Shown: positions 204 through 24,048 of the stretch, in pieces
Numbering within the stretch: position 1 is the stretch's first letter
How the letters are laid out: every line of letters starts with the position of its first letter
From: Candidatus Brocadia sp.
GTDB lineage: Bacteria > Planctomycetota > Brocadiia > Brocadiales > Brocadiaceae
Assembly: GCA_021650915.1 (NCBI GenBank)
Contig: CP091279.1
Coordinates: forward strand, 3,720,001 to 3,752,000
Direction of reading: 5' to 3'
Length of the DNA: 32,000 nucleotides
Program-made: the position numbers and the translations under genes
Notes under the pieces: generated by a model
Seen by the model: the letters and a program-made list of their open reading frames with translations, nothing else
Databases searched by the model: none
Told to the model about the DNA's origin: nothing

Positions 204-995
204 ATGAACATAAGAAGAAATTGTATTTTATTGGTATGGTTTGTAGCGATTGTTATTTTTTCCGTGACTACGATAAGCAATGCCGAAGAATCTCCTGCGC
301 ATGTGGCTCAGGAAGATTTGTATGAAAAGGCGATGGTTCTTAAAGAAGATGGTAAGGGTGATGAGGCGATAAATATGTTCAATAAATTCATGGACACCAA
401 CAAGGACGAATTAAAAAGAACTGATGCCATGTTAGAGCAATGCATGATTATGAAAGGTATGAAAACTCCTACTTGGAAAACTAAGGCAAGAGAGGCACAA
501 CAAAAGGTTAAAATTCTTTATAGAACTAATTATATGAATCCAGAATACTGGCTTGTCTATGCAAAGTTTGCAGCGATTGTCAATGAGGAACGTGATGTAT
601 ATGGAGCATTTAAAAAGGCATTTTACTATAAGCCGGATTATCCGGAAGGTTATATTGTAAAGGGAGATTTGTACAGCTACCTTGCAAAAAATACCGACCC
701 GTCAGAATCCACTGCAAGCACTGCAATCGGTTATGAAGAGGCACATGTCAGTAAAGAGAATTCCGTCCGTTACCAGAAAGGAAAAGAGGCAAAGGAGTCT
801 TACGAAATTGCACTTAGAAATTCAACCCTGGATAACGATAAAAAGGCGTCTATTCATTATAAAATTGGCGAACTGGAAATGAATATTTTATTAAATAAAG
901 AAGAAGCGATTAAGAACTGGAAGAAGACGGTTGAGCTTTCCCGTGATAGTATGTATGGTAAAAAATCCGCCGAACTCTTGAGCAAGAATCTGTGA
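204..995 (+). CDS. secreted TPR-like helical-repeat protein
   Basis: 263 aa. ATG 204 is preceded by GAGGA (193-197). N-terminal signal peptide MNIRRNCILLVWFVAIVIFSVTTISNA/EE. Several TPR-like helix pairs (EAINMFNKFMDTN, PEYWLVYAKFAAIV, DYPEGYIVKGDLYSYLAK, ASIHYKIGELE...EEAIKNWKKTVELS). The stop overlaps the next start (GTGA). Confidence 0.7.
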   Translation: MNIRRNCILLVWFVAIVIFSVTTISNAEESPAHVAQEDLYEKAMVLKEDGKGDEAINMFNKFMDTNKDELKRTDAMLEQCMIMKGMKTPTWKTKAREAQQKVKILYRTNYMNPEYWLVYAKFAAIVNEERDVYGAFKKAFYYKPDYPEGYIVKGDLYSYLAKNTDPSESTASTAIGYEEAHVSKENSVRYQKGKEAKESYEIALRNSTLDNDKKASIHYKIGELEMNILLNKEEAIKNWKKTVELSRDSMYGKKSAELLSKNL

Positions 996-1816
996 TTAAT
1001 GGTTTGACCGTTGACCTTGAAGACTGGTATCACATCTGTGGCGTAGAAGGCTATTCTGACCCACAGAACTGGGATACGTATGAAAATCGCATCATAAGAA
1101 ATACCGATAAGGTACTTGCCCTGTTAAGAACGTATAAAGTAAGGGCTACTTTTTTTGTCCTTGGATACATTGCCTTCAAAGAGCCGGATCTCATAAGAAC
1201 AATTAAGAGTGAGGGGCATGAAATAGCAACGCACGGCTTCTATCATAAAAGGATCTTTGAGATGACGGAACGGGAGTTTGAGGAAGATGTTCATAAGTCT
1301 ATTTCGGTCATATCATCAAATATCAACGAGGATGTTCTAGGCTTTAGGGCACCGGAATGGTCGATAAGAAAAGAAACTCCTTGGATGTTGAAAATACTCA
1401 GGAAACTTGGTATTCTCTATGACTCGAGTATGGTTCCCCTTACCAGAATGGGAAGCAGGGATTTTCCTCTTTATCCATGCAAATTTACTACTGATTACGG
1501 AGTAATATGGGAATTTCCTCTTACTACAACAAGGCTATTTTGGGAACATCTCCCTTTTACCGGAGGATTGCCCCTGAGGATATTCCCTTACTTTTACATT
1601 GTCTCGAAGATTCAAAGAATAAATCGGGAAGGATATCCGGTTATCGTTTATATTCATCCGTGGGAATTTGACGTGGAACAGCCACACATTGACCTCCCGG
1701 TAAGCAGACGTTTTATGCATTATTTTAATATAAAAGCAACGTGCAAAAAGGTGGAGGGCTTGCTTCAGCATTTCCAGTTTTCCACGGTGAAGGACGTGCT
1801 TGGGATCAGGACATGA
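992..1816 (+). CDS. polysaccharide deacetylase-family hydrolase (CE4/NodB-like, DUF3473 / PEP-CTERM-locus subtype)
   Basis: 274 aa. Blocks LTVDLEDWYH, KVRATFFVLGYIA, GHEIATHGFYH, GFRAPEWS, FTGGLPLRIFPY and VYIHPWEFD match my memory of the DUF3473-type deacetylases found in exosortase/EPS loci. GTG start at 992 lies in a GTGA overlap with the upstream stop. Confidence 0.85.
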   Translation: MINGLTVDLEDWYHICGVEGYSDPQNWDTYENRIIRNTDKVLALLRTYKVRATFFVLGYIAFKEPDLIRTIKSEGHEIATHGFYHKRIFEMTEREFEEDVHKSISVISSNINEDVLGFRAPEWSIRKETPWMLKILRKLGILYDSSMVPLTRMGSRDFPLYPCKFTTDYGVIWEFPLTTTRLFWEHLPFTGGLPLRIFPYFYIVSKIQRINREGYPVIVYIHPWEFDVEQPHIDLPVSRRFMHYFNIKATCKKVEGLLQHFQFSTVKDVLGIRT

Positions 1817-2016
1817 GAGATGCCTATTTTATGAAATCATTATTTTCTGCCCTTTTGTGCTATGTTGTCTTGCTGGCCATTTTGATAATTTTCGTTGCTG
1901 TTACAGGCATTATGGGAGCGCTCTTTCTTCTTACAATCGGTGTAGTATTCCTGGTTTATTTTTATGGCGGGTTTAAAAAAATTACCGTTTTGGGAGGCAA
2001 AGGTCGTACGTTTTGA
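1813..2016 (+). CDS. small two-helix membrane protein (67 aa), no recognised family
   Basis: ORF-track ORF 1741-2016 trimmed to ATG 1813, which forms an ATGA overlap with the deacetylase stop (alternative ATG at 1831). Two hydrophobic helices (SLFSALLCYVVLLAILIIFVAV, GALFLLTIGVVFLVYFYGGF) plus a basic tail. Its TGA overlaps the TTG start of the next gene. Confidence 0.45.
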   Translation: MRDAYFMKSLFSALLCYVVLLAILIIFVAVTGIMGALFLLTIGVVFLVYFYGGFKKITVLGGKGRTF

Positions 2017-3224
2017 ATAGAAGGGTTGTTGTAACCGGTATCGGTATGATCACTGCCCATGGCATCGGGATAAAGGCAAATTGGACAAAGATAAAATCAG
2101 GCATGTCCAGCATACAGGAGATTGCATCATTTGATTCTTCAAAATACAGAGGAAAGACAGGCGGAGAAGCGCGTGAATTTAGTACTGCTACCCTTAACAA
2201 TCTGAAGAATAAAAGGCTCGATAGGGCGTCACATCTTTTGATTCATACAACACGCGAAGCGCTTGCGGATGCGAATATCATTGATGCGGTAAAAAACATA
2301 CCTGTACTTTTGTCTGTTGGCACAACGCTCGGCGGTATGATTTCCGGAGAGATATTCCATAAAGAGGTTATAAAAAGAGGGCTGAACAGGGCAAAGGTTT
2401 CCCGGGTATTTGATTATCTGGCTCATTATCAGGCGATTCATCTTTTTAAGGAATTGGAATTAAAAGGGGACTTTTTCGTTTTCTCCAATGCCTGCGCTTC
2501 AGGCACCGATGCTATTGGACATGCATTCAATTCAATACGACACGGTGATTATGACGTGGCCATTTGCGGGGGATATGATACCATGAGTGAGTTTTCATTT
2601 GCAGGATTTAACTCACTTATGGCAATAACACCAACCCTTTGCATGCCTTTTGATAAAAAGAGAGAAGGTCTGGTTCTTGGAGAGGGTGCAGGCGTTTTGA
2701 TTTTAGAGGAACTGGAACATGCTCATAAGCGAAATGCACGTATACTGGGTGAGATAGCTGGTTATGGCGCATCATCGGATGCATGCCATATGACAAGCCC
2801 TGAACCATCGGGAAAAGGTGCGGCGATCGCTATAAAAAGGGCTTTGAAAGATGCCGGCCATCCTGAAATTGATTACATAAATGCCCACGGTACCGGGACA
2901 AAATACAATGACATCATGGAAACGAACGCCGTGGTAATAGCGTTTGAAAGCAAGGCAAAGGAAATACCTGTCAGTTCAATAAAACCAATGATCGGGCACC
3001 TCCTCGGAGGCGCTGGAGCAGTTGAGGCAATCGTTTCCCTGTTATCCATACTTTACAAAACCCTTATACCTAATATAAATTATACAACGCCCGACCCTGA
3101 ATGTGCTTTAAATATCGTCAGGGAGTCTATGGGGTGTAATATAAAAACAGTCCTCTCCAACTCATTTGGATTTGGAGGTTCCAATGCAGCAATAATAATC
3201 AGGGAATATGTATGGAGAAATTAG
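2013..3224 (+). CDS. fabF: beta-ketoacyl-ACP synthase II-like ketosynthase (KS-1, catalytic)
   Basis: 403 aa. N-terminal VVVTGIGMIT. Active-site Cys in FSNACASGTDAIG (TGC at 2493-2495). His motifs INAHGTGT and KPMIGHLLGGAG. C-terminal NSFGFGGSNAAIII. TTG start in a TTGA overlap. Confidence 0.9.
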   Translation: MNRRVVVTGIGMITAHGIGIKANWTKIKSGMSSIQEIASFDSSKYRGKTGGEAREFSTATLNNLKNKRLDRASHLLIHTTREALADANIIDAVKNIPVLLSVGTTLGGMISGEIFHKEVIKRGLNRAKVSRVFDYLAHYQAIHLFKELELKGDFFVFSNACASGTDAIGHAFNSIRHGDYDVAICGGYDTMSEFSFAGFNSLMAITPTLCMPFDKKREGLVLGEGAGVLILEELEHAHKRNARILGEIAGYGASSDACHMTSPEPSGKGAAIAIKRALKDAGHPEIDYINAHGTGTKYNDIMETNAVVIAFESKAKEIPVSSIKPMIGHLLGGAGAVEAIVSLLSILYKTLIPNINYTTPDPECALNIVRESMGCNIKTVLSNSFGFGGSNAAIIIREYVWRN

Positions 3225-4267
3225 TTTTGACAGGTGTAGGCATGGTGACTTCTATGGGTATCGGGAAGGAACAATTCTGGAATAACGTAGTAAACGGCTC
3301 TTCCGGGATCAAACGTCTTACGAAGTTTCCTACGGCACACGAAACCTACTGTGGAGAAATTAGTGACTTTCATTTCGATGTATCGATAAGCGACAACAGG
3401 TTCAGACGCGCAGCGGATATATCAAAATACACGCTAACTGCAGTAAACTTAGCAATAAGCGATGCAGGCACGAAGACTTTGGATGACAAAGATACCGCAT
3501 TGGTCGTAGGGATAACCCATGGTGCATTAAATTATGCCCAAGCATTCCATAAGTCACTGGTGATGGAAGGCGTTGATGATATAAGCCCAATACATTTTTC
3601 AGATTCGGTGCTTAACGCCCCGGCCGGTAATGTATCCATCGGCTTTGGTATCAAAGGCCCGATTCATACGCTCGTTGGTGGCGCGACAACTGCTATAAAG
3701 GCAGTGATGCTTGCATCCCGGATGTTGAGCTCCGGAGTGGTTAGCAAGTCAATCGTTGTTTCCTCAGATGAACTGAACGAACTTTCTCTCCACTGCTATT
3801 CACGTCTGGGAATACATACCCTGTCGGAGGGTTCAGGCGCGGTATTGATTGAAAAAGAGGGAAAAATAACGGGAACGACACCCTATTGTTACCTATCAAG
3901 TATAGCATCCCAATGTAATCCCTCAAATCCCTGTGCTACATTGCATGAGGTAATCAATCAATGTTTGGAAAAGGCAGACATAGGTCCAAAAGATATAGAT
4001 CTTGTGATGACGGATTCTTGTGTGCCCGTCAAATCGGATCTTCATGACATTCCTGTCGGATGCATTATACCTCTTTCAGGAAATGCATTTTCACTTACGG
4101 TAATATTGCATATAATAGTGTCTTCTCTGGCCATTAACAATGGCGCGATACCAAAAGCCATTATCAGGAATGGCATTTCAATATCCGATTGCTTACAAAA
4201 TGTGCTCATCTACTCTACAGAAGAAGATGGCATTGCCTCTGCAATGATTTTATCGAAATGCTTATAA
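3212..4267 (+). CDS. KS-like protein lacking the catalytic Cys and His residues (KS-beta / chain-length-factor-like partner of KS-1)
   Basis: 351 aa. KS-like N-terminus LVLTGVGMVTSMGIGKEQFWNNVVNGSSGI and a SEGSGAVLIEKEG block. The nucleophile position reads LVGGATTAIKAV (no Cys), and there is no HGTGT or GHxxG motif. ATG 3212 overlaps the KS-1 stop by 13 nt. Confidence 0.8.
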   Translation: MEKLVLTGVGMVTSMGIGKEQFWNNVVNGSSGIKRLTKFPTAHETYCGEISDFHFDVSISDNRFRRAADISKYTLTAVNLAISDAGTKTLDDKDTALVVGITHGALNYAQAFHKSLVMEGVDDISPIHFSDSVLNAPAGNVSIGFGIKGPIHTLVGGATTAIKAVMLASRMLSSGVVSKSIVVSSDELNELSLHCYSRLGIHTLSEGSGAVLIEKEGKITGTTPYCYLSSIASQCNPSNPCATLHEVINQCLEKADIGPKDIDLVMTDSCVPVKSDLHDIPVGCIIPLSGNAFSLTVILHIIVSSLAINNGAIPKAIIRNGISISDCLQNVLIYSTEEDGIASAMILSKCL

Positions 4268-4286
4268 GTATGAATAGAATGCGTAT

Positions 4287-5351
4287 ATGAATCAAAGTGT
4301 AGATTCTCCCAATATAAAGTTGCTGTTAAGTCAATCACACCCCCAGATGTTTCTCACAGACCGGCTTATACGTTTTGTTGAAGAGGAAGGCATTTCCGAA
4401 CTTCTTCAATCTATGAGACGGTTTACCATTGAGGAGGCTCTTGAGGCATTCCGCGAAAAGCTTGGTTACAAGCTTCAGGATAGAGTAAGACTCAGAATGG
4501 CAAAAGTAATTGTTGATCTCTTATATGAATGTGAGTACCTGGAGAAGAAGGGCGAACGTTATTTCTGGATAGAAGGTAAGGGTTTTGAGACAAAATTGTC
4601 AGCAGATGGATACAAGGTGGCAAAGGACGCTTTTAAAGGACAGGTAGATTTTTTTGAAAGGTGTATCATGTATGCCGATAAGTTTTTGAATGGCAACCCA
4701 CCACTGTATAGCTTCGACAGCGCTTCAACCGGGATTTGGGAGGAATTTCTTGGTAATACCGAATTCAGATTTGCTCGCTCTGTCCTGATAAATCTGTTGT
4801 TTTCCGGGAGGAATGACAACGCAACCGTTCTTGCCCTTTGTTACGGACCCGGTTTTGATATCCTTCAAATGCAGGAACAGTACAATATAAGGGTAACAGC
4901 GCTGGATTTCAAAGACGTCTTTCAGAGTCAGGCGTCCCGGAGAATATTAAATCCCAATTCGGTAAAATGGGTTCAATCGGCATTATGGAAGGGATTTGGG
5001 ACTCCCCTGCCTTTTCATGATACTATGTTCGATGCCGTATTTTTTGCATGCGCTGACCCTTATATTCCGGAGGAATCACGCGAGTTTGTTTATAAAGATA
5101 TATTCAGGGTATTAAAACACGGTGGTATTCTCGGTATTGTAACCCGCAGTTATCCCGATACAGAGAGAAAATATGTGAAAGACCCTTTTGTAAGGAAAGG
5201 CACTCTTTGCCATGACTTTTCCGAAAGTGTTTGTGAGGGGTGGTGCGGGTTTTATCATCCGCAAGAATCGGAAAATCTTTTTAAAACCATCGGGTATCAT
5301 GTCAATACGATAATGCTGAATGCCTCTGTTTGGCGGCTTGATAAACCATGA
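4287..5351 (+). CDS. class I SAM-dependent methyltransferase with ~170-aa N-terminal helical extension
   Basis: 354 aa. The C-terminal half carries Rossmann-MTase blocks (VLALCYGPGFDIL, FDAVFFACA, IFRVLKHGGILGIV). The N-terminal extension resembles the dimerisation/winged-helix heads of small-molecule MTases. Its stop overlaps the next ATG (ATGA at 5348). Confidence 0.75.
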   Translation: MNQSVDSPNIKLLLSQSHPQMFLTDRLIRFVEEEGISELLQSMRRFTIEEALEAFREKLGYKLQDRVRLRMAKVIVDLLYECEYLEKKGERYFWIEGKGFETKLSADGYKVAKDAFKGQVDFFERCIMYADKFLNGNPPLYSFDSASTGIWEEFLGNTEFRFARSVLINLLFSGRNDNATVLALCYGPGFDILQMQEQYNIRVTALDFKDVFQSQASRRILNPNSVKWVQSALWKGFGTPLPFHDTMFDAVFFACADPYIPEESREFVYKDIFRVLKHGGILGIVTRSYPDTERKYVKDPFVRKGTLCHDFSESVCEGWCGFYHPQESENLFKTIGYHVNTIMLNASVWRLDKP

Positions 5352-6538
5352 AGAGTTTGAAGGATACTGTAGTCGTAACGGGAATCGGTGTTATTACTCC
5401 TCTGAAACCGTTTAGGGAAGTCGATGAGTTCTGGAATTCGTTGTGTTCCGGTGAAGATGCCATAAAAAGGATGTCACTTCCGCTGCTTGATATGGATAGG
5501 AAATGGCTTATGGCAGGTATCGATCAATCCCGTTTTCCGAATAGTATAAGTCCCGAAAACAAACTTCAATGGATTGCAGAAGAAGCGCTGTGCATGGCAA
5601 TGAAAGATGCAAATCTCGAAGAGTATGGCAACGCCGGCCTTTCTCTCGGAACGGTGCTTGGTAACGTGCTTGCAAAGGAAAAACGATTACTGGAGAACAA
5701 AAAACAACAGTCAAAATGGGATAATGAAGAGGAATCGCTTTCGCATATCACAGCATATCTTGCTGCTCAACATAATCTGAGCGGACCGACTATTACCATT
5801 TCCACAGCCTGTACTTCCGGTACGGACGCAATAGGAATAGCGGCGCGAAAAATAATGACCGGGAAAACAAGTATGATGTTTGCCGGTGGTGTCGACGTGC
5901 TCAGTGATTTTGCCATTTTAGGCTTTCATGTCCTTCAGGCTCTGACAGAGGAAAAGGTCAGACCTTTTGATAAGAACAGGAGTGGCCTTGCTCTTGGTGA
6001 GGGTGCGGCCTTCGTCGTGCTTGAGTCTGAAAAGCACGCAATTCATCGACAGGCAAAAATATATGGAAAGGTGATGGGCTATGCTTCAAGAGCCGATGCC
6101 AATCACCTGGCAGGCCCACACAGAGAAGGTCGAGGACTCGCTGATGCCATAAATCGTGCAATTTCAGAATATGCCCTCGAACCTCAGGAGATCGACTATA
6201 TTAATGCACATGGGACCGGCACGGTATATAATGACCTCATGGAAACAAAGGCCATAAAAAAGGTATTTGGAAAGGCGGCATACGATATCCCCATAAGCTC
6301 AACAAAATCGATGCTGGGGCATTCCTTCGGCGCTTCCGGCGCCATAGAGGCAATATGCTGTTTGCTTTCCATGAAAAACAAAGTAGTTCCTCCTACGATC
6401 AATTTCCATGAAAAAGACCCCGAATGTGACCTTGATTATGTTCCGAATGTGTCAAGATATCATGACGTGAACACAGCCATTTCACTGTCTGCAGGTTTTG
6501 GCGGTCAAAACGCTGCAATACTATTTGGTCAAGCATGA
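5348..6538 (+). CDS. fabF: beta-ketoacyl-ACP synthase-like ketosynthase (KS-2, catalytic)
   Basis: 396 aa. VVVTGIGVITP. Active-site Cys in ISTACTSGTDAIG (TGT at 5810-5812). INAHGTGT, KSMLGHSFGASG, SAGFGGQNAAILF. ATGA overlaps at both ends. Confidence 0.9.
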   Translation: MKSLKDTVVVTGIGVITPLKPFREVDEFWNSLCSGEDAIKRMSLPLLDMDRKWLMAGIDQSRFPNSISPENKLQWIAEEALCMAMKDANLEEYGNAGLSLGTVLGNVLAKEKRLLENKKQQSKWDNEEESLSHITAYLAAQHNLSGPTITISTACTSGTDAIGIAARKIMTGKTSMMFAGGVDVLSDFAILGFHVLQALTEEKVRPFDKNRSGLALGEGAAFVVLESEKHAIHRQAKIYGKVMGYASRADANHLAGPHREGRGLADAINRAISEYALEPQEIDYINAHGTGTVYNDLMETKAIKKVFGKAAYDIPISSTKSMLGHSFGASGAIEAICCLLSMKNKVVPPTINFHEKDPECDLDYVPNVSRYHDVNTAISLSAGFGGQNAAILFGQA

Positions 6539-7128
6539 AACCGGTAATCACGGGGGTGAGTAAAATAAGCAGCAACAACATCGAATATGCGGCATCCGGT
6601 CTTAAAGATTCTATCAGGCAGATGCGATTTGTTAACAGTCTGGAGCAATTGGCTGTTACCGCTGTTGGTATTATGCTGAATGATGCCAAAATAGATATTC
6701 CCATTGGGAATTCCAATGTCGGTCTTTTTGTTGGTATTGACGATTCTATAGAAGATATTAAGGATGAGTATTTTGAAGGTATTCTGAATGAGGGTATCCT
6801 GGGAGCAAGTCCTTTACTTTTTCCCTATACGACACCGAATTCACTGGCGGCACAGGTATCCATAGCGTTTGATATAAGGGGGGAAAATATCACAATTCCT
6901 ATACAATATTCATATCGCACGGTACTAGAATATGCGGTTGAATGTATTACCGAAAAATACACCGGAACAGCAATTGCAGGTGGAATTAGAGTACAAGATA
7001 AAAATTTATCTATTGGAAATGGTCGATATGTAGCAGAATTTTTTTTACTTGAAGACGTAGACAGCGCAAGAAAACGGGGAGCAACGATATATAACAATGC
7101 ATGGGAAGGGTTGTGTGAGAGTTTTTGA
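6535..7128 (+). CDS. half-length KS-like protein (N-terminal thiolase-fold half only, no catalytic Cys); putative partner of KS-2
   Basis: 197 aa. By eye it aligns only with the N-terminal half of a KS (VITGVSKIS, GLFVGIDDS, LLFPYTTPNSLAAQVSIAFDIRGENITI, AEFFLLEDVDSARKRGATIY). The nucleophile position reads IQYSYRT. The His-bearing C-terminal half is absent. ATGA overlap with KS-2. Confidence 0.6.
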   Translation: MKPVITGVSKISSNNIEYAASGLKDSIRQMRFVNSLEQLAVTAVGIMLNDAKIDIPIGNSNVGLFVGIDDSIEDIKDEYFEGILNEGILGASPLLFPYTTPNSLAAQVSIAFDIRGENITIPIQYSYRTVLEYAVECITEKYTGTAIAGGIRVQDKNLSIGNGRYVAEFFLLEDVDSARKRGATIYNNAWEGLCESF

Positions 7129-10828: not shown

Positions 10829-10841
10829 GGCAATAGGTCAT

Positions 10842-11836: not shown

Positions 11837-12249
11837 CAGTTCCCTATCCGTCCCCAAGAACCGCACTACCCCATTCTTACCCGTTTCTCCTGATTGATAG
11901 AATACTTGACCTCGACGAAGGCAAACGCATTGTATGTCTGAAGAATGTGACTATTAATGAGGAATTTTTTCAAGGGCATTTCAAGGATAACCCTGTAATG
12001 CCTGGGTCCCTTATTATAGAAGCAATGGCACAAACGTCTGGATTGATGATTGTTAAAGAAAAATCAAGTATGGCTTATTTGGGCAAGATAAAAGATGCAA
12101 AATTCAGAAAAATGGTTGTGCCTGGTGACCAGCTTATTATTACCTCATCTCTCATTGATAAGTTTCCACCATTTTATACCTTTGAAGTTATTGCATCAGT
12201 TGGAAGCGAGATTGTGTCTGAAGCAGAGATAATCCTTTCCTTAAGTTGA
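11833..12249 (+). CDS. fabZ: 3-hydroxyacyl-ACP dehydratase (FabZ-like hot-dog fold)
   Basis: 138 aa. LPHSYPFLLIDRI and FFQGHFKDNPVMPGSLIIEAMAQ, the FabZ catalytic His/Glu block. ATGA overlap with the ACP gene. Confidence 0.85.
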   Translation: MTVPYPSPRTALPHSYPFLLIDRILDLDEGKRIVCLKNVTINEEFFQGHFKDNPVMPGSLIIEAMAQTSGLMIVKEKSSMAYLGKIKDAKFRKMVVPGDQLIITSSLIDKFPPFYTFEVIASVGSEIVSEAEIILSLS

Positions 12250-12262
12250 TAGGCAGGGCTCT

Positions 12263-13093
12263 ATGAAATACGTCAATTGCAATCTCTGTAATGCTGATGA
12301 TACTTTTCTTGTTACAACACAAAATGGTTATAAGATTGTACGATGTAAAAGTTGTGGTCTTGTTTATGTGAATCCCAGACCAGACAACGAGGCGCTAAAG
12401 CATCTCTATGATGAATATCACCAGAGAAACGGCAAAGACGTGAACGATTGGGCAAAGCTTATGGGAAAAAATTTTAAGGAGATTTTATTGTTTTTAAACA
12501 AAGCGCTTCCAGACAAAGGGAAGCTACTTGATATTGGATGTGGTTACGGACACTTTATCGAGATAATGAAACAGCAAGGATGGTCTGTATATGGAATCGA
12601 TCTCTCTCCTAAGGTATTGCTCTATGCAAAGGAAAAAGGACTGGATGTATTAGAAACATCCATAGATGACGTATCAGTTCCCGACGAATATTTTGATGTC
12701 GTAACGGCATTTTATGTGTTAGAGCATGTGACAAATCCGCTTCATGTCCTCAAAAACATGTATAAAATGCTAAAACCATGTGGAATTCTTGTCTTACGGG
12801 TTCCGCACACAACACCGATTATTCGAATTCTTTCGTTTTTCAGAATAAAGAATAATCTTTATGATACCCCCTATCATTTATTTGACTATTCACCAGAAAT
12901 AATAATTCAACTCCTTAAAAAGGCCGGGTTTTCCTCTGTCAAGGTAACACCGGGAAGCCCGACAATCCCTGCCAATGTATTTGAAATGATAGTTTCTGTG
13001 GTTTCGGGAAGTCTTTCTAAATTCCTTTTTGCAATAAGTGCTGGAAAATTTCTCTTACCCGGGATAAGCAAGACCATTTTTGCTTTCAAATAA
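12263..13093 (+). CDS. class I SAM-dependent methyltransferase with N-terminal CxxC...CxxC zinc-ribbon
   Basis: 276 aa. CNLCNADD...CKSCGLVYVNP ribbon. SAM motif LLDIGCGYGHF. FDVVTAFYVLEHV, LKPCGILVLRVP. Hydrophobic C-terminal tail. Confidence 0.8.
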   Translation: MKYVNCNLCNADDTFLVTTQNGYKIVRCKSCGLVYVNPRPDNEALKHLYDEYHQRNGKDVNDWAKLMGKNFKEILLFLNKALPDKGKLLDIGCGYGHFIEIMKQQGWSVYGIDLSPKVLLYAKEKGLDVLETSIDDVSVPDEYFDVVTAFYVLEHVTNPLHVLKNMYKMLKPCGILVLRVPHTTPIIRILSFFRIKNNLYDTPYHLFDYSPEIIIQLLKKAGFSSVKVTPGSPTIPANVFEMIVSVVSGSLSKFLFAISAGKFLLPGISKTIFAFK

Positions 13094-13120
13094 AAGAAAA
13101 AGAGACTTAGGTACTGTAAG

Positions 13121-15652
13121 ATGAAACGTATGAAATTAGAACATCTTCTGAGAAAAGTTGCATTTGTTATTTTCTTGTACCACAAGAAAATAGTCATCCT
13201 CTTTTCTGTTTTGATTATTGCCTCTTTCTACACTATTTTTCATATGAAAATTGAATCCGATGTTTTAGACGTGCTCCCTTCCGGCAATAAAACGGTTGCT
13301 CAATATAAGGATTTTATAGAAAAATATGGAACCATGGATAACATTGTATTTATCGTGGAATCGGAAGATAATAAAATTAGTGAAAACATAGACCTTATTG
13401 AAAAGATTGCCAAGAATCTTTCCGAATCTCCCCTAATTGAATATGTTGATTACGGCCCACTAAACTATAAGAACGAAGTATTTATAAGATATTTACCACT
13501 CTTTCTTGATGAAACCGGGATAAAATTTCTTAAGAAAAGATTAACACCACAAGGAATTAAACAGCAAGTCAAAATAAACCACGATAGGCTTGTTTCGCCT
13601 CTTAGCTCACCTTTTGATTATGAAATGATTGCAAGAGATCCACTCAATTTACATACTATTCTGAGAGCTAGTTTGTTAAAACAGTATCAGGCGAGCAAAT
13701 TAGATTTAAGCATGGGATATTATTTCACGAAAGATCATTCTGCCGCTCTCCTTCTTGCTAAACCCACAGGTAAGGGCAGAGACATGGCTTTCGTAAAGGA
13801 ATTAAAAAAAGAATTGGATATTATTACCTTCTCTGCATTGCAAGAGTGTAGCAATCCTCCTGGCGTAAAAGTTGGGATAACAGGAGGACATGCAATTGCG
13901 GAAGATATTCGTCAGATTATCAAACATGATGTTACTGTATCTTCTGCACTCTCTATTATTCTTATTGGATTGCTTATAATGCTGGCATATAGGGTGAGAA
14001 TAAAGATTCTTTCCATAATAGGATTAACTATGTTCGCATCTCTAGCAGTAACGTTAGCATTCGCTTATCTCCTTTTTGGAAGTTTAAATATTGTAACGAG
14101 CGCCGTTGTGGCAATACTTATTGATATTTATGTGGATTATTCTTTGCACATGGTAAAAAGGTATTGCGATGAATTTAAAAAACATAATAATCCATACATG
14201 GCGTTAGAAGTAACCCTCACGAGAACAGGGCCAGCTATAATCTTGTCCGCCCTGACAACTTCACTGTCTTTTTTCTGTATCCTTGTAACAAATTTTAAAG
14301 GGTTGTATGAGCTTGGAGTAGTATCCGGAATAGGTGTTATTTTGAGTATGATGTGCAATTTGTTTTTGATGAATGCACTTCTTGTGTGGATCAGTAAATC
14401 TGGTTTGCAACGAATACAATATGGAAGAAATTTCTTTCGTGGAAGCGGGAATTTTCCCAATTTTCTCATAGGGAAAACGAAATATATTCTTACATTGAGT
14501 GCCATTTTGGTTTGTTTGGCAGCATTCGGAATAGCTCGATTAAAATTTAACAATAATCCAGATTCGCTTGCGCCCGTGGATAGTCCTGCTATTCTCTCAG
14601 GAAAGAAGCTGGGTGAAAAAATGGGGAAAAAGGGAGAACCTCTGAATATTATAATTAAATCAGATAACAAAGAAGAACTCAGCCGCGCCTTTGATGAACT
14701 GGAAACTGTTTCTACTCGGTGGAAACACGCTAAGATAATTGAGGATTATAGTTCGTTAAATACATTTATGCCTAAGCCATCGGATCAATTAATAAATGTG
14801 AATACATTAAGAAAAATTGGACATGACAGCTTATTAAGAGTAGATTCTTTAGAAAGTGTACTTATATCTGCCCTTGAAAAAAATGGTTTTGTGTTTGAAA
14901 AAGATTATATTAATAAATATTTACACGAGACAGTAACTACACTTAATACTATTGAGCCTATAGGCTTTGACGAACTTGAAGCAATGTCAATTCCCAATGT
15001 ATCTCATTTTTATAATAAGCGGGATTTATCAATCGTTGCGTATCTTTATCCAACGGTAAAGGGATGGGATAAACGGACCGTGGATACAATACAGGATTAC
15101 ATTATATCAAAAGGGGGAAATTGGGTACTCGTAGGTAAGCCTATTCTTTTTACCGAAATACAGTCATCTATTATCTGGAATAGCGGAATTGCAACCGTAT
15201 TAACAGTTTTGCTGAATCTCATTATTATCTATTGGTATTTTAGAAGATTCCTGGTAGTCGTTTTGGTTATGCTGCCTGTGACACTTGGATTCGTGTTTAC
15301 TGTGGGAATAATGGGTTACGCAAACATCTCTTTTAATGTTTTTAATATTAGTGCGATTGCTCTCATTTTTGGATTAGGAGTTGATTATGGCATATACGTT
15401 ATACAGGCGTATCTGATGGAGGATACCGTGGATGTCGGAAATGCCCTTCGCATTAGCGGAAAAAACGTGATTATGTGTGCCGCGACAACCATAGCCGGTT
15501 GTGGAAGCCTGATAACCGCAAAATTCATTGGGATTGCTACGATAGGTCTTGTTCTTAGTATCGGCGCTATTACCTGCGCTTTCACGGCGCTTATTATTTT
15601 ACCTGCAATTATCATGCTTAAAGGGAAAAGGCTTTGCCATGCCAGACTATGA
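13121..15652 (+). CDS. MMPL/RND-superfamily lipid exporter
   Basis: 843 aa. Duplicated architecture: one TM helix, a large soluble loop and a bundle of about five TM helices, twice (the TM bundles lie around aa 270-420 and 690-835). GxxxD-type helices (FGLGVDYGIY) typical of MMPL/HpnN-like exporters. Confidence 0.8.
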   Translation: MKRMKLEHLLRKVAFVIFLYHKKIVILFSVLIIASFYTIFHMKIESDVLDVLPSGNKTVAQYKDFIEKYGTMDNIVFIVESEDNKISENIDLIEKIAKNLSESPLIEYVDYGPLNYKNEVFIRYLPLFLDETGIKFLKKRLTPQGIKQQVKINHDRLVSPLSSPFDYEMIARDPLNLHTILRASLLKQYQASKLDLSMGYYFTKDHSAALLLAKPTGKGRDMAFVKELKKELDIITFSALQECSNPPGVKVGITGGHAIAEDIRQIIKHDVTVSSALSIILIGLLIMLAYRVRIKILSIIGLTMFASLAVTLAFAYLLFGSLNIVTSAVVAILIDIYVDYSLHMVKRYCDEFKKHNNPYMALEVTLTRTGPAIILSALTTSLSFFCILVTNFKGLYELGVVSGIGVILSMMCNLFLMNALLVWISKSGLQRIQYGRNFFRGSGNFPNFLIGKTKYILTLSAILVCLAAFGIARLKFNNNPDSLAPVDSPAILSGKKLGEKMGKKGEPLNIIIKSDNKEELSRAFDELETVSTRWKHAKIIEDYSSLNTFMPKPSDQLINVNTLRKIGHDSLLRVDSLESVLISALEKNGFVFEKDYINKYLHETVTTLNTIEPIGFDELEAMSIPNVSHFYNKRDLSIVAYLYPTVKGWDKRTVDTIQDYIISKGGNWVLVGKPILFTEIQSSIIWNSGIATVLTVLLNLIIIYWYFRRFLVVVLVMLPVTLGFVFTVGIMGYANISFNVFNISAIALIFGLGVDYGIYVIQAYLMEDTVDVGNALRISGKNVIMCAATTIAGCGSLITAKFIGIATIGLVLSIGAITCAFTALIILPAIIMLKGKRLCHARL

Positions 15653-17096
15653 TGTAATAGTTATCGGGAGTGGGATTGGCGGTCTTATAAGCGCCGGGAT
15701 TCTGGTGTCAAGGGGTTTAAAAATACTTCTTGTAGAAAAGAATGTGAATCCCGGCGGGTATCTTTCGTCGTTTAAGAGAGGCGACTTTATTTTTGATTCC
15801 GCTGTCGATTGCTTTTCGGGTATTGAAAAGGGTGGATTGATAAGCAATGTCTTAAAGCTTCTCGATGTTGATAGCCAGGTGCATTTTGTGCGTGTTGATC
15901 CTATACGAGTAAGCATGTTCCCGAACCTTAAGGTTTCAGTTGATTCGGATATAAATACCTATATGGATAAACTTATGGCAATATTTCCTTCCGAAGCTGC
16001 TGCAATCAGGGGGTTCTTTAAAAGAGCTTCTATGGTATATGATGAACTCCAAATAGCGATAAACAAGCTTATTTCGGGTGAATTTGAATTAAATATAATA
16101 AGTCCGAACATACTGAAACTTATGTATAGTTCGTACGAGGAATTGCTGGTTGAATATATTACCGACTACCGGCTTAAAGCCGTATTGTCCGACCGGTGTA
16201 CGTTTGTTGGCCTTCCGCCTTCAAAAGCTTCTGCCTTTTCAATGATTGCCTTAATGATGAGTTACTTTAAATTTGGCGCATATAGACCTGTGGGGGGCTT
16301 TCAAAAACTCGCGAATGTCTTTGTTGATGGAATAAGGAAGAACGGAGGCAAGGCTATCTTCGGTACGGAGGCAAAGCAGATTATTTTAGACAAACAAAAT
16401 TATTGTACGGGTGTAAAATGTGATAACGGTGATGAATATACAACACGCTATATTATATCAAATGCCGACTTTAATCATACCTTCAGGAGCATCATGGGAG
16501 GAAAATATTCGTCTTTTGCCAGAGATATGACGGAGAACATTGGAAGTTCAACCTCTTTTTTTATAGTCTATGCGGGTATCATGGGCGATGCCGGCAAATA
16601 CTCCAGTATCGGCTATTATCCATCTTATGATATGGAGGGTTTCTTTTCTCCGGATAAGACGTTTAAGGAGGATACAACCATAGGCATTACTATCGCCAGT
16701 ATCGAGGATAAATCACGTGTTCCAGCGGATTGTAATACCATAGTGCTGCACGAAATGGCAGATGGATCTCGATGGGATTGTGTTGATAAATCAAAATGTA
16801 CCGGGGCAGTATTAAAAAAAGCAGAAAGTATCATTCCTGATATAATGGATAGAATTGTTGTCCTTGACTCAGCAACACCTCAGACACTGCAGAGATACAC
16901 GGGAAACTATCATGGCGCTGCATTTGGCTGGAGACAGGCGCCGGTGTTCAAGGGGATAAAGAGATGCGGAATAAATAATCTGTATATTGCCGGCCACTGG
17001 GGGAACATGGGTGGCGGCGTTTTAGCTGCTGCATACGCTGGAGTTGAAGCGGCAAGCGAAATTCTTACGAAAGAGGGAATACACATTGCCATCTGA
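15639..17096 (+). CDS. FAD-dependent oxidoreductase of the phytoene desaturase (CrtI/CrtD) family
   Basis: ORF 15549-17096 trimmed to ATG 15639 (14-nt overlap with the exporter stop). Dinucleotide fold YDVIVIGSGIGGLISAGILVSRGLKILLVEKN..PGG. C-terminal LYIAGHWGNMGGGVLAAAYAGVEAA block typical of the CrtI/amine-oxidase fold. Confidence 0.8.
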   Translation: MPDYDVIVIGSGIGGLISAGILVSRGLKILLVEKNVNPGGYLSSFKRGDFIFDSAVDCFSGIEKGGLISNVLKLLDVDSQVHFVRVDPIRVSMFPNLKVSVDSDINTYMDKLMAIFPSEAAAIRGFFKRASMVYDELQIAINKLISGEFELNIISPNILKLMYSSYEELLVEYITDYRLKAVLSDRCTFVGLPPSKASAFSMIALMMSYFKFGAYRPVGGFQKLANVFVDGIRKNGGKAIFGTEAKQIILDKQNYCTGVKCDNGDEYTTRYIISNADFNHTFRSIMGGKYSSFARDMTENIGSSTSFFIVYAGIMGDAGKYSSIGYYPSYDMEGFFSPDKTFKEDTTIGITIASIEDKSRVPADCNTIVLHEMADGSRWDCVDKSKCTGAVLKKAESIIPDIMDRIVVLDSATPQTLQRYTGNYHGAAFGWRQAPVFKGIKRCGINNLYIAGHWGNMGGGVLAAAYAGVEAASEILTKEGIHIAI

Positions 17097-18126
17097 TGTT
17101 TGTGTTGTTATCCCTGCCTATAACGCATCCAGTACCATTGGGAATATCGTAATCGGCGCATTAAAACATGTTTCTAAGGTCATCGTCGCCGATGACGGTT
17201 CTACGGATAATACAGCAGTTGCGGCTTCCGGGGCAGGAGCAGAGATAGTTATAATAGACAGAAATAGAGGAAAAGGAAATGCCCTAACAGTTCTTTTTCA
17301 GAAGACCGTAGATGAAGGATACGATGCCGTAATAAGCATGGATGCGGATGAGCAACATGATCCTGAAGAGATACCGAAGTTTCTTGCTGCTCATATCATG
17401 CACCCGGATGATATAATTTCAGGCTCAAGAATGGGTGAGAAAGAAAAAATTCCAAGGGCGCGATACAACTCTATGTGTATAGCGCGATATTATATTTCCC
17501 TTGCCGCCAATCAATTTATAGAAGATACACAATGTGGTTTCAGGCTTTACCCTCTATCGATAATAAAAAAAATCCGGTTGAAGACAGAAAGATTCGTTAC
17601 TGAAACCGAATTGCTGATGAAAGCGGGAGATATGGGCGCAGACATCAGGTTTGTAAGTATTAAAACGATATACAATGAAAACGGGACCCATTTCAAGCCT
17701 GTTAAGGACATTGTTGCTATAACAGCATATGTCATTTCCTATATTTACGTCAAATGGTTAATCGAAGGGATAACCTCAAACAATTCAAATACCTATTTAA
17801 CACAAAACCATCTAAGGGATTTAATAGGCAAAAACAAAACCGTGGATATTTTTTTTCAAATATTTACGGTTTTCACCGCCCTGCCTGCAACGGTGTTTTT
17901 TTTACTCGAATATCAATTTTTAGGGCTATTTATACCAAACAATTTTGCATCTATACGGGAACGTGGCTGTGGATTTTCCAAGATTACCCTTTCAACACAA
18001 ACGTTGCCTGTTTTGTTTATCGTTGCCGGTATTGAAAAAATCATGAATGTTACCGGGTCTAAGGTCAATATCTTGGATGGTTTTATAAAAAGGTTCTTCT
18101 CAAATTCATGGAAAGATACGGAATAG
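17086..18126 (+). CDS. family 2 glycosyltransferase with C-terminal membrane domain
   Basis: VCVVIPAYNASSTIGNIV, VADDGSTDNT and the DADEQHD (DxD) motif. C-terminal hydrophobic helices (IVAITAYVISYIYVKWL, IFFQIFTVFTALPATVFFLLEY). The start is ambiguous: TTG 17086 (11-nt overlap, preferred) or TTG 17044 (ORF-track start, 53-nt overlap). Confidence 0.8.
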   Translation: MPSDVCVVIPAYNASSTIGNIVIGALKHVSKVIVADDGSTDNTAVAASGAGAEIVIIDRNRGKGNALTVLFQKTVDEGYDAVISMDADEQHDPEEIPKFLAAHIMHPDDIISGSRMGEKEKIPRARYNSMCIARYYISLAANQFIEDTQCGFRLYPLSIIKKIRLKTERFVTETELLMKAGDMGADIRFVSIKTIYNENGTHFKPVKDIVAITAYVISYIYVKWLIEGITSNNSNTYLTQNHLRDLIGKNKTVDIFFQIFTVFTALPATVFFLLEYQFLGLFIPNNFASIRERGCGFSKITLSTQTLPVLFIVAGIEKIMNVTGSKVNILDGFIKRFFSNSWKDTE

Positions 18127-18149
18127 TATAAAGATAGTAATCCACATAC

Positions 18150-18788
18150 ATGGCTATTTCGATAAAAGAAGGCTTTAAATTACTAGTATATAGATACATT
18201 CCCTATTGTTTTTTATATCCCTTTTTTGTGGTATTTGGCAGGTTAGAAGTCAAGGGGATTGAACACATTCCGATAAAAGGCGGTATTATTATAGCGTCGA
18301 ACCATTTAAGTTATATTGATCCGCCTCTCTTAGCAACGATACTTCCTCGAAGATGCAATTTTATGGCAAAACATGAATTATTTGATATACCGATATTGAA
18401 ATATATCATACGGTATTATGCCTTTCCTATAAATCGGCAAAAACCAAGGGTGTCCGCAATAAAAACTGCGATACACAAGCTTTGCAACGGAGAAATAGTC
18501 GTCATATTTCCGGAAGGGAGCAGAAATATAGGAACAACTTTCCTTCCTCCTAAAAACGGTATTGGCATGGTAGCTCTTTTGAGTAAGATGAATGTTGTGC
18601 CGACATTGATTGAAGGCACAGACAATCTCTTTCCCCCGGGCAAATTCATCCCAAGACCGGCAAAGATACGAATAACGTTTTGCAAACCACTTGACCCTGT
18701 CCTGGAAGATACGGATTATAGAGTAATCAGTCGCAAAATCATGAGCCATATAACACAAATGACTGCGACAAAAACTTTAGGTGCTTAG
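18150..18788 (+). CDS. plsC: 1-acyl-sn-glycerol-3-phosphate acyltransferase-like (LPLAT/PlsC family)
   Basis: 212 aa. HX4D motif ASNHLSYIDPP and FPEGSR motif. Last gene before the terminator. Confidence 0.85.
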   Translation: MAISIKEGFKLLVYRYIPYCFLYPFFVVFGRLEVKGIEHIPIKGGIIIASNHLSYIDPPLLATILPRRCNFMAKHELFDIPILKYIIRYYAFPINRQKPRVSAIKTAIHKLCNGEIVVIFPEGSRNIGTTFLPPKNGIGMVALLSKMNVVPTLIEGTDNLFPPGKFIPRPAKIRITFCKPLDPVLEDTDYRVISRKIMSHITQMTATKTLGA

Positions 18789-18947: not shown

Positions 18948-18989
18948 ATAAAAAAGGCATGTTTCTGTAACGAAACATGCCTTTTTTTT
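18948..18989. terminator. bidirectional rho-independent terminator shared by the convergent + operon and the - strand lipoprotein gene
   Basis: Perfect 10-bp stem ggcatgtttc (18956-18965) / gaaacatgcc (18972-18981) with a 6-nt loop. An A-run lies upstream (18949-18955) and a T8 run downstream (18982-18989), so the hairpin reads as a terminator on both strands. Confidence 0.75.
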
Positions 18990-24038: not shown

Positions 24039-24048
24039 AAAAAGCCTC

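Follow-up and report, generated by a model that had tools for sequence, protein, structure and literature searches.

A 19-gene array of Candidatus Brocadia fulgida, counterpart of the Kuenenia kuste3352–kuste3335 cluster, as a candidate envelope-lipid operon shared with non-anammox anaerobes

Gene clusters of the aryl-polyene/flexirubin family as a rule anchor and export their products with LPLAT, GT2, MMPL and LolA proteins. The Kuenenia cluster kuste3352–kuste3335 was put forward for ladderane synthesis in 2006/2009; it was found to be syntenic with a cluster of Desulfotalea psychrophila, in which no ladderanes were found (Rattray 2009). On expression of the kuste cluster in E. coli there was no product; kuste3342 and kuste3343 escaped detection throughout, and insolubility affected most of the proteins (Javidpour 2016). 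The field now favours another cluster, the six-gene Cluster I (KustE3603–3608), and structural and biochemical work is done there. For one methyltransferase of B. fulgida, AmxMT1 (PDB 8HD2), C-alpha methylation of a small beta-ketoacyl-ACP was proposed from the crystal structure and docking, not from an assay, and in a pull-down this protein captured AmxACP3, a carrier protein of Cluster I (PMC9821293).

The window (the whole stretch of DNA analysed, 32,000 nucleotides) holds a counterpart of the Kuenenia cluster. The g06 product (4287–5351) is identical to PDB 8HD2 at 354 of 354 residues and the g11 product is BROFUL_02282 (an exact match to KKO18988.1), which identifies the locus as the Ca. 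Brocadia fulgida copy; judged by these identities, the source of the window is this anammox bacterium. Gene order is that of kuste3352→kuste3335, both as tabulated by Javidpour 2016 and at the Kuenenia genome locus (L086). The operon is a locus already known and not a new candidate. The preliminary description had matched its composition to the candidate of Rattray 2009 and Javidpour 2016, and had stated that heterologous expression gave no ladderanes; it was right in both. The features are as follows.

3–194, + strand: ATP-grasp gene 3′ end, last 64 codons; same co-directional array, start outside the window
204–995, + strand: g01, 263 aa, N-terminal signal/TM segment, possibly TPR-like; counterpart kuste3352
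992–1816, + strand: g02, polysaccharide deacetylase with DUF3473, XrtA-type, NodB fold (PF01522, PF11959); kuste3351
1813–2016, + strand: g03, 67-aa hydrophobic two-helix peptide; kuste3350 (66 aa)
2013–3224, + strand: g04, ketosynthase KS1, FabF-like (PF00109, PF02801); kuste3349
3212–4267, + strand: g05, chain-length-factor-like KS partner (PF00109 N-terminal domain, PF13723); kuste3348
4287–5351, + strand: g06, AmxMT1, class I SAM methyltransferase (PDB 8HD2); kuste3347
5348–6538, + strand: g07, ketosynthase KS2 (PF00109, PF02801); kuste3346
6535–7128, + strand: g08, 197-aa truncated KS-like partner (PF00109, partial match); kuste3345
7097–8422, + strand: g09, adenylate-forming ligase, PaaK/FlxY type, presumed starter-acid activator (PF00501); kuste3344
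8415–9467, + strand: g10, radical SAM/SPASM enzyme (PF04055, PF13186); kuste3343
9464–10828, + strand: g11, B12-binding radical SAM enzyme, TIGR04072 (BROFUL_02282); kuste3342
10842–11585, + strand: g12, FabG-type ketoreductase (adh_short_C2, KR); kuste3341
11585–11836, + strand: g13, acyl carrier protein (PF00550); kuste3340
11833–12249, + strand: g14, FabZ-type dehydratase (PF07977); kuste3339
12263–13093, + strand: g15, second class I SAM methyltransferase (Methyltransf_23/11); kuste3338
13121–15652, + strand: g16, MMPL/HpnN-like RND lipid exporter (PF03176); kuste3337
15639–17096, + strand: g17, CrtI/carotenoid-isomerase-family flavoenzyme (PF01593, PF13450); kuste3336
17044–18126, + strand: g18, GT2 glycosyltransferase, start codon uncertain (PF00535); kuste3335
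18150–18788, + strand: g19, PlsC/LPLAT-family acyltransferase (PF01553)
18950–18997, no strand: bidirectional intrinsic terminator, flanked by g19 and the convergent ORF 19034–20263

The 19 ORFs of 204–18788 are all on the + strand and mostly overlap. Recomputed junctions are 4-nt overlaps at 992, 1813, 2013, 5348, 6535, 9464 and 11833, further overlaps of 13 nt at 3212, 8 nt at 8415, 1 nt at 11585 and 14 nt at 15639, one of 32 nt at 7097 and one of up to 53 nt at 17044; all others are gaps of 13–27 nt. Strand, ORF coordinates and overlaps are thereby as first described, with the one at 7097 added. The convincing terminator earlier placed at 18956–18989 also holds: 18950–18997, a perfect hairpin followed by U8, folds at −25.2 kcal/mol (z = −6.0) and 0 of 200 shuffles fold as well. 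Its layout is an A-run, a GC-containing 10-bp stem extended to 16 pairs, and U8. A simple pattern scan missed it and it was caught by folding; internal terminator-like and promoter-like sites were found by pattern scan only at chance level in the array. The array does not, as had been claimed, begin at 204. The ATP-grasp stop is 9 nt before g01, the translation of 3–194 matches the C-terminus of the ATP-grasp protein of 387 aa whose gene precedes g01 in L084/L085 (an ATP-grasp gene is also there in L001, L005, L006, L008 and L009), and in the genome 8–11 more co-directional genes precede g01. The upstream genes are ATP-grasp, two more radical SAM, and LolA-, DedA- and LpxL-like (the LolA-like protein matches LolA2_flexi at 93 bits, below the NCBI cutoff). 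On balance, the window probably represents most of an operon of ~27–30 genes in Ca. Brocadia fulgida, a judgement made jointly with that on its product given at the end.

Pfam and NCBIfam searches returned every part listed in the preliminary description: two KS, two KS-like partners, KR, ACP, FabZ-type DH, AMP-ligase, SPASM and B12 radical SAM enzymes, two class I methyltransferases, MMPL, CrtI-family flavoenzyme, GT2 and LPLAT, together with polysaccharide deacetylase. ER, TE and MAT domains were not found in the window by these models, also as described. The catalytic tetrad Cys-His-Lys-His is intact in KS1 (g04; 384 bits against the FabF model, below the cutoff of 494) and in KS2 (g07). 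In g05 the Cys is replaced by Ala, His303 by Asp, the Lys by Ile and His340 by Asn, and the best PDB match, 9s5h_C, reaches only 89 bits; by alignment g08 is the N-terminal half of a KS only, and has no Cys. The active-site residues thus agree with the claim of two catalytic KS, each with a Cys-less partner. The best NCBIfam match of g09 is the flexirubin ligase FlxY (433 bits, below the cutoff of 520). The annotation of kuste3350 as an ACP was considered for g03, which is conserved in L001, L005, L007, L008 and L009, and was rejected: g03 lacks a Ser attachment motif and does not match the PP-binding model. Since g03 is not a carrier protein, g13, with its LDSID Ser motif, is the sole ACP in the window; its identification as amxACP was itself rejected (best PDB matches ≤41 bits).

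g12 scores 297.7 with TIGR01830 (cutoff 297.75) and 261 bits with FlxB (below cutoff). g14 scores 158.5 with the FabZ model NF000582 (cutoff 113), and ordinary FabZ structures outscore the other dehydratase entries, presumed amxFabZ. As KR and DH score as ordinary FabG and FabZ, the missing ER gene does not establish a polyene product, and the earlier deduction of a polyene from KS, KR and DH without ER does not follow. kuste3341 is described as a Kuenenia fabG outside the canonical FAS cluster (PMC4790861). From this and the housekeeping-like KR and DH, part of the operon may serve general fatty-acid synthesis.

Both radical SAM enzymes carry CX3CX2C, at residue 38 in g10, which also has a C-terminal Cys cluster, and at residue 198 in g11. 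The nearest models of g10, AhbD and NirJ2, are both far below their cutoffs. g11 matches TIGR04072 at 434.8 bits (cutoff 360), followed in score by models of the methylases BzaD, Trp 2-C-methyltransferase and PhpK. For g15 no NCBIfam model was at or above cutoff. Below cutoff, too, are the scores of g17 with TIGR02730 and TIGR02734, the HpnN-like match of g16 (235 bits) and the AglJ, PpgS and ArnC-like matches of g18, which resembles polyprenyl-phosphate sugar transferases. kuste3336 did not substitute for CrtI in E. coli (PMC4790861). g16 is 53% identical to Kuenenia ‘mmpL8’ (P0275); among distant MMPL relatives there are methyltransferase-MMPL-acyltransferase fusions. g02 scores 264 bits with TIGR03006, slightly below the cutoff of 276, and g19 has an HX4D motif (HLSYID at residue 52). 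There is no Pfam match to g01, only a weak LcrH/SycD TPR match, and its colinear homologues are 33–78% identical.

A pathway can be proposed. The PaaK/FlxY-like ligase g09 would activate a carboxylic-acid starter and load it onto ACP g13, for extension with malonyl units by the KS/inactive-partner pairs g04/g05 and g07/g08, each beta-keto group being processed by KR g12 and DH g14. AmxMT1 (g06) would methylate C-alpha of a short beta-ketoacyl-ACP, as its published structure and docking suggest, and g11, as a class B B12 radical SAM enzyme, would most likely methylate an unactivated carbon. The chain could be tailored further by g10, g17 and g15. LPLAT g19, with GT2 g18 and deacetylase g02, may then join it to a glyco- or phospholipid anchor. 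Transfer of the product to the outer envelope may fall to the MMPL pump g16, assisted by the LolA-like and DedA-like proteins encoded upstream.

Relatives of g11 are encoded at 589 genomic loci at least. g01–g19 are strictly colinear in a Nitrospira MAG (973-kb contig), in Dissulfurispiraceae and in NC10 (1.08-Mb contig), and near-strictly so in Desulfobacterota MAGs (one GT2/MT2 inversion in L020), both radical SAM genes being within the colinear set in all of these. Concatenated identity to B. fulgida is 63–71% for Nitrospirota versus 65–68% for Kuenenia, Jettenia and STL-AMX1. Each of the 19 genes is matched by a colinear gene in one or more non-anammox loci, and comparison with these carriers revealed no anammox-specific gene in the window. 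g12 is missing from the corresponding position in Jettenia and STL-AMX1; g19 is colinear in Jettenia (L005) and Nitrospira (L006) and is not adjacent in Kuenenia. The ladderane reading of the preliminary description presupposed that the full set is not equally conserved outside ladderane makers, and this does not hold, the set being about equally conserved in non-anammox lineages (absence of ladderanes is experimentally established among non-anammox carriers only for Desulfotalea). Being common to several phyla of strict anaerobes, the operon is not specific to ladderanes.

That it builds ladderanes directly, with the two radical SAM enzymes turning an ACP-bound polyene (KS, KR and DH, no ER) into fused cyclobutanes by cyclisation, is accordingly a weak reading and very improbable. 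In its favour, the operon is in an anammox genome and this role was proposed for it, the literature favours radical SAM chemistry as the route to anaerobic ring formation, and the 2016 E. coli experiment was an unfair test because of the two undetected proteins and the insolubility of most others. However, Nitrospirota, NC10 and Desulfobacterota have the identical gene set in identical order and with equal sequence similarity, Desulfotalea has a syntenic cluster but no ladderanes, no window gene is peculiar to anammox, export genes of the LolA and MMPL types speak for the outer envelope, not an internal organelle membrane, as destination, the nearest characterised relatives of g11 are methylases, and experiments are at present focused on Cluster I with its different ACP, FabZ and KS pair. 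Rattray 2009 concluded that a shared precursor is made, an anaerobically formed polyunsaturated or activated acyl chain, which anammox bacteria alone convert to ladderanes, e.g. via Cluster I. The synteny of Kuenenia with Desulfotalea and the unusual polyunsaturated hydrocarbons of the latter (Rattray 2009), the occurrence of a CrtI-like enzyme in both operon and Cluster I, and the AmxMT1 pull-down of AmxACP3 favour this. It is nevertheless improbable: the hydrocarbons were not tied to the cluster by genetics; an ACP, a KS/CLF pair and a FabZ are already encoded in Cluster I, which according to the literature can itself initiate chains through decarboxylation of malonyl-ACP; and the export and anchoring genes suggest a finished product, not an intermediate.

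Mid-chain methyl-branched C16 acids are known from anammox, NC10, Nitrospira and some Desulfobacterota. Their occurrence in these carrier groups, the canonical FabG and FabZ scores, the three predicted methylases (g06, g15 and g11), and the resemblance of deacetylase, GT2, LPLAT and the upstream LpxL-like acyltransferase to glycolipid/lipid A assembly logic, would fit an operon that modifies ordinary fatty-acyl chains (e.g. by mid-chain or alpha-methyl branching) for a glycolipid or lipid-A-like anchor, with no polyene-type chain. This is unlikely, though less so than either role in ladderane synthesis. For the mere modification of bulk fatty acids an operon would need neither a starter ligase nor two pairs of dedicated KS and partner, and a literature search turned up no link.

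Given the presence of the same operon, gene for gene, in non-anammox anaerobes, the candidate product is most likely some specialised envelope lipid other than ladderanes. The described systems that the operon resembles are those for aryl polyenes and flexirubins, as the preliminary description held on domain content, and with which the flexirubin-model matches agree. Flexirubin systems supply the best or near-best NCBIfam models of g09, g12 and the upstream LolA (all scores are below NCBI cutoffs), the active-site pattern is KS/CLF-like and g05 matches PF13723. In contrast to aryl-polyene systems, the DH is FabZ-type and not of the ApeI/ApeP type, and thioesterase and ammonia-lyase are lacking from the operon. 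Aryl-polyene systems are not known to contain ATP-grasp, deacetylase or CrtI-like proteins, nor as many as four radical SAM enzymes. On balance, the operon is probably built on the aryl-polyene/flexirubin type II plan, its putative product being a methylated, radical-SAM-tailored acyl lipid for the envelope.

The nineteen ORFs of the gene array, all on the + strand between window positions 204 and 18788, were put together at the junctions much as first described. On recomputation there are 4-nt ATGA, GTGA or TTGA overlaps at seven junctions (992, 1813, 2013, 5348, 6535, 9464 and 11833), overlaps of 1–53 nt at a further six and gaps of 13–27 nt at the last five. Promoter- and terminator-like motifs within the array are at the chance rate only in a motif scan. 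The hairpin at 18950–18997, recovered by direct folding (−25.2 kcal/mol, z = −6.0), is a convincing bidirectional terminator; a terminator pattern scan of the window did not report it (18956–18989). Pfam and NCBIfam profile searches, domain by domain, found every domain that had been listed. Because ORFs, junctions, domains, KS and SAM motifs and terminator all check out, the observation of an operon is confirmed.

Two genes at 19034–21778 are convergent to the operon. One is a 409-aa ORF that matches no Pfam family and lies where the window is richest in GC (0.49); the other encodes a TrkA_N-DHH-DHHA1 phosphoesterase. At 22040–24089 a Pab1020-type RNA ligase gene (+) adjoins a convergent PIN_5 ribonuclease gene (−), an arrangement suggestive of a pair for RNA repair or of toxin type, with no relation to the lipid operon. 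Positions 27032–28825 and 29584–30495 encode a UbiD-family decarboxylase and a Wza-like protein for polysaccharide export (Poly_export and SLBB). Scans of the whole window for tRNAs and Rfam families gave no match.

The start of the array at position 204, as given in the preliminary description, did not stand: the window edge cuts the array. Positions 3–194 encode the C-terminal 64 residues of an ATP-grasp protein, whose stop codon is 9 nt upstream of the first gene, g01, and on two matching contigs (L084, identical to the window across the window's first 10 kb, and L085, which differs by 1.2%) the array runs on upstream in the same direction.

Upstream continuation of the array on the matching contigs
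L084, 2334–9991, same direction as g01: upstream co-directional genes
L085, 3054–9991, same direction as g01: upstream co-directional genes
Order outward from g01: ATP-grasp protein; second B12 radical SAM enzyme; small ORFs (two to five); second radical SAM/SPASM enzyme; DedA/VTT protein; LolA-like protein; LpxL-like acyltransferase

In loci of Nitrospira and Dissulfurispiraceae, too, the ATP-grasp gene is found at this position. The second B12 radical SAM gene (467 aa) is HpnJ/BchE-like, and the small ORFs upstream of it are lipoprotein-like. The called product of the second radical SAM/SPASM gene (L085 4976–6029; 312 aa) does not contain CX3CX2C; CNFSCEFC is present in an in-frame extension 5′ of the called gene in L085, and the true start is therefore probably some 40 codons earlier. 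Counting this upstream part, the unit spans about 26.5 kb, with genes for four radical SAM enzymes.

When aligned with E. coli FabF, both catalytic ketosynthases, KS1 (g04) and KS2 (g07), have the Cys-His-Lys-His tetrad intact, while in g05, the KS1 partner, the tetrad positions are Ala/Asp/Ile/Asn, and g08 is the N-terminal half of a KS only. A model of g07, g08 and the ligase g09 as a cispentacin-type carbocycle-forming set (AmcF, short AmcG and loading ligase) is not supported: g07 scores 335 bits against FabF and 268 against AmcF, the dehydratase g14 scores 57 bits against AmcE, and an NCBIfam search gave no AmcG match for g08. CX3CX2C is present in both radical SAM enzymes of the window, and g10, nearest to the AhbD/NirJ-type SPASM enzymes in NCBIfam, also has a SPASM-type Cys cluster at its C-terminus. 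The other, g11, has an N-terminal B12-binding domain (PF02310) and a radical SAM core (PF04055); its motif is CPFQCTYC at residue 198, with all three Cys invariant in 16 homologues. By its score against TIGR04072, ‘lipid biosynthesis B12-binding/radical SAM protein’ (rSAM_ladder_B12; 434.8 bits, cutoff 360, model positions 1–441 of 443), g11 is a member of that family, and its next-best models are the class B methylases BzaD, Trp 2-C-methyltransferase and PhpK.

The small gene g03 (1813–2016, +) encodes a 67-aa hydrophobic peptide with two transmembrane helices, of a type conserved in the operon across phyla. It has no Ser attachment motif, and g13 is therefore the single ACP of the window. 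The Kuenenia counterpart of g03, kuste3350 (66 aa), was annotated and expressed as ‘ACP’, an annotation that looks wrong. The CrtI-like flavoenzyme g17 scores 126 against the CrtI phytoene desaturase model TIGR02734, below the cutoff of 238, and kuste3336, its Kuenenia counterpart, did not complement crtI (PMC4790861). Among distant relatives of the MMPL protein are fusions of about 1,280 aa that join a methyltransferase, MMPL and a PF01553 acyltransferase (P0328, P0330, P0334 and P0336–P0339). Such Rosetta-stone fusions suggest that the separate products of g15 (the second methyltransferase, MT2), g16 (MMPL) and g19 (LPLAT) cooperate.

The locus is already known, as the gene-table, structure and protein matches show, and the feature was correctly described. 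The methyltransferase g06 is identical at 354 of 354 residues to PDB 8HD2, the crystallised AmxMT1 of Candidatus Brocadia fulgida (PMC9821293), and g11 is an exact match to KKO18988.1, BROFUL_02282. The link to the candidate cluster of Rattray 2009 and Javidpour 2016 had been drawn correctly: the order and annotations of kuste3352 to kuste3335 of Kuenenia stuttgartiensis, as tabulated in Javidpour 2016, agree one to one with g01–g18, and the Kuenenia genome locus (L086, CP049055.1), reached via the MMPL homologue P0275, is colinear over g04–g18. Protein identity between the two is 49–69% over g05–g18, with g04 partly covered; in B. fulgida, though not in Kuenenia, the GT2 gene is followed by an LPLAT gene. 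The Kuenenia operon, its ‘largest’ for fatty acid synthesis according to the literature, was nominated for ladderane synthesis in 2006 and 2009 (Strous 2006; Rattray 2009). When its genes were expressed in E. coli in 2016, no new fatty acids were found and the operon's two radical SAM proteins were undetected (PMC4790861).

A scan of 185,579 species-representative genomes for relatives of g11 gave at least 589 loci, and all 19 window proteins were scored against the best 80 of these. The complete set, including both radical SAM genes and in unchanged order, is present in the anammox Jettenia ecosi and the Brocadiaceae MAG STL-AMX1, and the Brocadia carolinensis locus is colinear for g01–g16, as far as it extends. 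With Kuenenia, the operon is found in three named anammox genera and a Brocadiaceae MAG. For Scalindua, the protein searches gave no match so named, which is not countable as absence since most matches are unnamed. Outside anammox bacteria the full colinear operon is present in a Nitrospira MAG (973-kb contig), a Dissulfurispiraceae MAG and an NC10 MAG (1.08-Mb contig); three further Nitrospirota contigs are colinear up to their ends, and near-colinear, less complete copies are present in two MAGs, one labelled Deltaproteobacteria and one unclassified. Among the best 80 loci, all 19 genes have colinear counterparts outside anammox bacteria, each in one locus or more.

Identity to the B. fulgida copy (KS2, ligase, SPASM and B12 proteins; 1,398 gap-free columns)
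Jettenia ecosi, anammox: 67.8%
STL-AMX1, anammox: 66.7%
Kuenenia, anammox: 65.2%
Nitrospiraceae MAG (L002), Nitrospirota: 70.7%
Nitrospirae groundwater MAG (L003), Nitrospirota: 69.3%
Dissulfurispiraceae, Nitrospirota: 64.3%
Nitrospira MAG (L006), Nitrospirota: 63.1%
NC10, Methylomirabilota: 51.3%

The operon is not restricted to the ladderane-producing anammox bacteria, and the non-anammox identities resemble those between anammox genera. In neighbour-joining trees, the only kind made, of the concatenated proteins, the anammox copies are not monophyletic (0 of 100 and 0 of 50 bootstraps), a result due only to the nesting of a single Nitrospiraceae-labelled contig, L002, inside the anammox group. 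This contig (CAYFQB010000031.1) carries the copy closest to B. fulgida outside Brocadia; it is either a recent transfer or mis-binned, and horizontal transfer is not claimed. Jettenia ecosi (L005 11362–11840) and STL-AMX1 (L008 11362–11474) have no KR gene between the genes for the B12 radical SAM enzyme and the ACP; the Brocadia, Kuenenia and Nitrospirota loci have one there.

Syntenic clusters had been noticed before. In those of Desulfotalea psychrophila (DP1853–DP1860), Geobacter and Pelobacter, the radical SAM pair is syntenic, as are a PDH-like enzyme, a membrane protein and a phenylacetyl-CoA-type ligase (Rattray 2009). The Geobacter-type loci are a reduced variant, with 40–44% identity of the B12 radical SAM protein and without AmxMT1, the ligase, the CrtI-like enzyme and MT2. 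Immediately before the TIGR04072 gene, reduced loci in Geobacteraceae and Syntrophaceae (L049, L079, L041, L056, L057 and others; approximately 4000–9000) carry an LpxL-like gene and two to three tandem copies of the B12 radical SAM gene of the second type. On aryl-polyene-like clusters with a B12 radical SAM enzyme in Desulfobacterota, the literature found consists of surveys only; these record ‘ladderane’ clusters, as called by antiSMASH, in many phyla outside anammox bacteria.

This distribution bears on the product. The preliminary description had favoured ladderane synthesis and held that equal conservation of the full gene set, both radical SAM genes included, in organisms making no ladderanes would refute it. 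Colinear operons at similar identity outside anammox bacteria thus show, at the level of sequence, just such conservation, and the ladderane interpretation is weaker than was thought. Synteny with Desulfotalea psychrophila was called ‘striking’, yet no ladderanes were found in that organism (Rattray 2009). That the operon builds ladderanes directly is accordingly very improbable, given the colinear copies in non-anammox phyla and a syntenic cluster in a bacterium that makes none. Barends and co-workers regard a six-gene Cluster I (KustE3603–3608, Broful02170–73) as the likely ladderane cluster. Cluster I shares part types with the operon (ACP, FabZ, a KS/inactive-KS heterodimer, a phytoene-dehydrogenase-like enzyme and a B12 radical SAM enzyme) but is a separate locus with different proteins, and its six genes include no ligase, SPASM enzyme, methyltransferases, MMPL, GT2 or LPLAT. 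KS1 scores 285 bits against chain B and g05 89 bits against chain C of PDB 9s5h, which we take to be the Cluster I KS heterodimer. The dehydratase g14 matches ordinary FabZ structures better than other dehydratase entries, presumably amxFabZ, and g13 reaches at most 41 bits against any ACP structure. The crystallised Cluster I proteins are clearly distinct from the KS, KS partner, FabZ and ACP of the window, which were rejected as their orthologues. In the model of Rattray, what the operon makes is a precursor, to be processed further by anammox bacteria; AmxMT1 pulled down the Cluster I carrier protein, which fits this model (PMC9821293), and the model is still improbable, if less so than direct synthesis.

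The reading preferred here is a type II pathway on the plan of the aryl-polyene/flexirubin clusters, probably for a methylated acyl lipid that is tailored by radical SAM enzymes, anchored and exported to the envelope. A more far-reaching reading, rather unlikely, is that strict anaerobes in four phyla (Brocadiales, Nitrospirota, NC10/Methylomirabilota and Desulfobacterota) use the operon to make a class of envelope lipid so far undescribed. Up to four radical SAM enzymes, with a ketoacyl and not an isoprenoid lipid as substrate, would then methylate a type II PKS/FAS chain and possibly cross-link or cyclise it before it is anchored and exported; in a narrower variant, the product in anammox bacteria would feed ladderane synthesis. 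According to a 2026 review, ladderanes and jawsamycin are the only proposed cases of radical SAM chemistry on ketoacyl lipids. The structure of AmxMT1 led to the proposal that it methylates the C-alpha of a short beta-ketoacyl-ACP (PMC9821293), as it would in the preferred pathway. Deacetylase (g02) and GT2 (g18) suggest an amino-sugar head group, there is the hint from the fusions that g15, g16 and g19 act together, and the export set (MMPL, LolA-like and DedA-like proteins) would direct the product to the outer envelope and not to an internal organelle membrane. A plausible rival, overlapping with the preferred model and of rather low probability, is that ordinary acyl chains are methyl-branched and then installed on a glycolipid; no literature was found that links mid-chain methyl-branched acids (10-methyl-C16) to the cluster.

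Ladderane synthesis is a long-standing problem that is still open, and one for which the operon has been a listed candidate since 2006. In practical terms the check yields a negative: on its phyletic distribution the operon deserves a lower rank than Cluster I among ladderane candidates, and it is better studied as a widespread lipid pathway of anaerobes. What is added here is gene-for-gene conservation in four phyla, the continuation of the array upstream, where two further radical SAM genes and genes for envelope transport lie, and the pointer to Desulfotalea as a tractable carrier, being culturable, non-anammox and a far easier experimental route to the product than anammox enrichments. Should the radical SAM enzymes indeed modify the ketoacyl chain, a rare type of lipid chemistry would be extended, and a new biomarker lipid for anoxic settings would be possible.

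The preliminary description had also derived a conjugated polyene from the parts list. The aryl-polyene-type type II architecture it recognised is there, with starter ligase, ACP, KS and its CLF-like partner, KR, DH, export genes and no ER. However, KR and DH match ordinary FabG and FabZ (NCBIfam), and the absence of an ER gene does not by itself show a polyene product; an ER may act in trans, supplied from outside the cluster. The operon maps almost one to one onto the aryl-polyene/flexirubin (Ape/Flx) type II PKS clusters, sharing with them the adenylating starter ligase, ACP, KS with inactive partner, a further KS, KR and DH, together with methyltransferase, LPLAT, GT2, MMPL exporter and LolA-like protein, and likewise having no ER. 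Flexirubin models are the best or near-best NCBIfam matches of three proteins, all below cutoff (FlxY, 433 against 520 bits; FlxB, 261 against 340; LolA2_flexi, 93 against 125). As these scores fall below the curated cutoffs, the operon most likely works in the manner of the Ape/Flx family, to judge from its gene content, without being a member. Its DH is FabZ-type and not ApeI/ApeP-type, it has neither thioesterase nor ammonia-lyase and, unlike those of Ape/Flx, its hosts are strict anaerobes. The four radical SAM enzymes, CrtI-like flavoenzyme, ATP-grasp protein, deacetylase and second methyltransferase are not known from Ape/Flx. Apart from the CrtI-like flavoenzyme, the ATP-grasp protein and the second methyltransferase, to which no role is assigned, these extras point to chain tailoring or a sugar-containing anchor.
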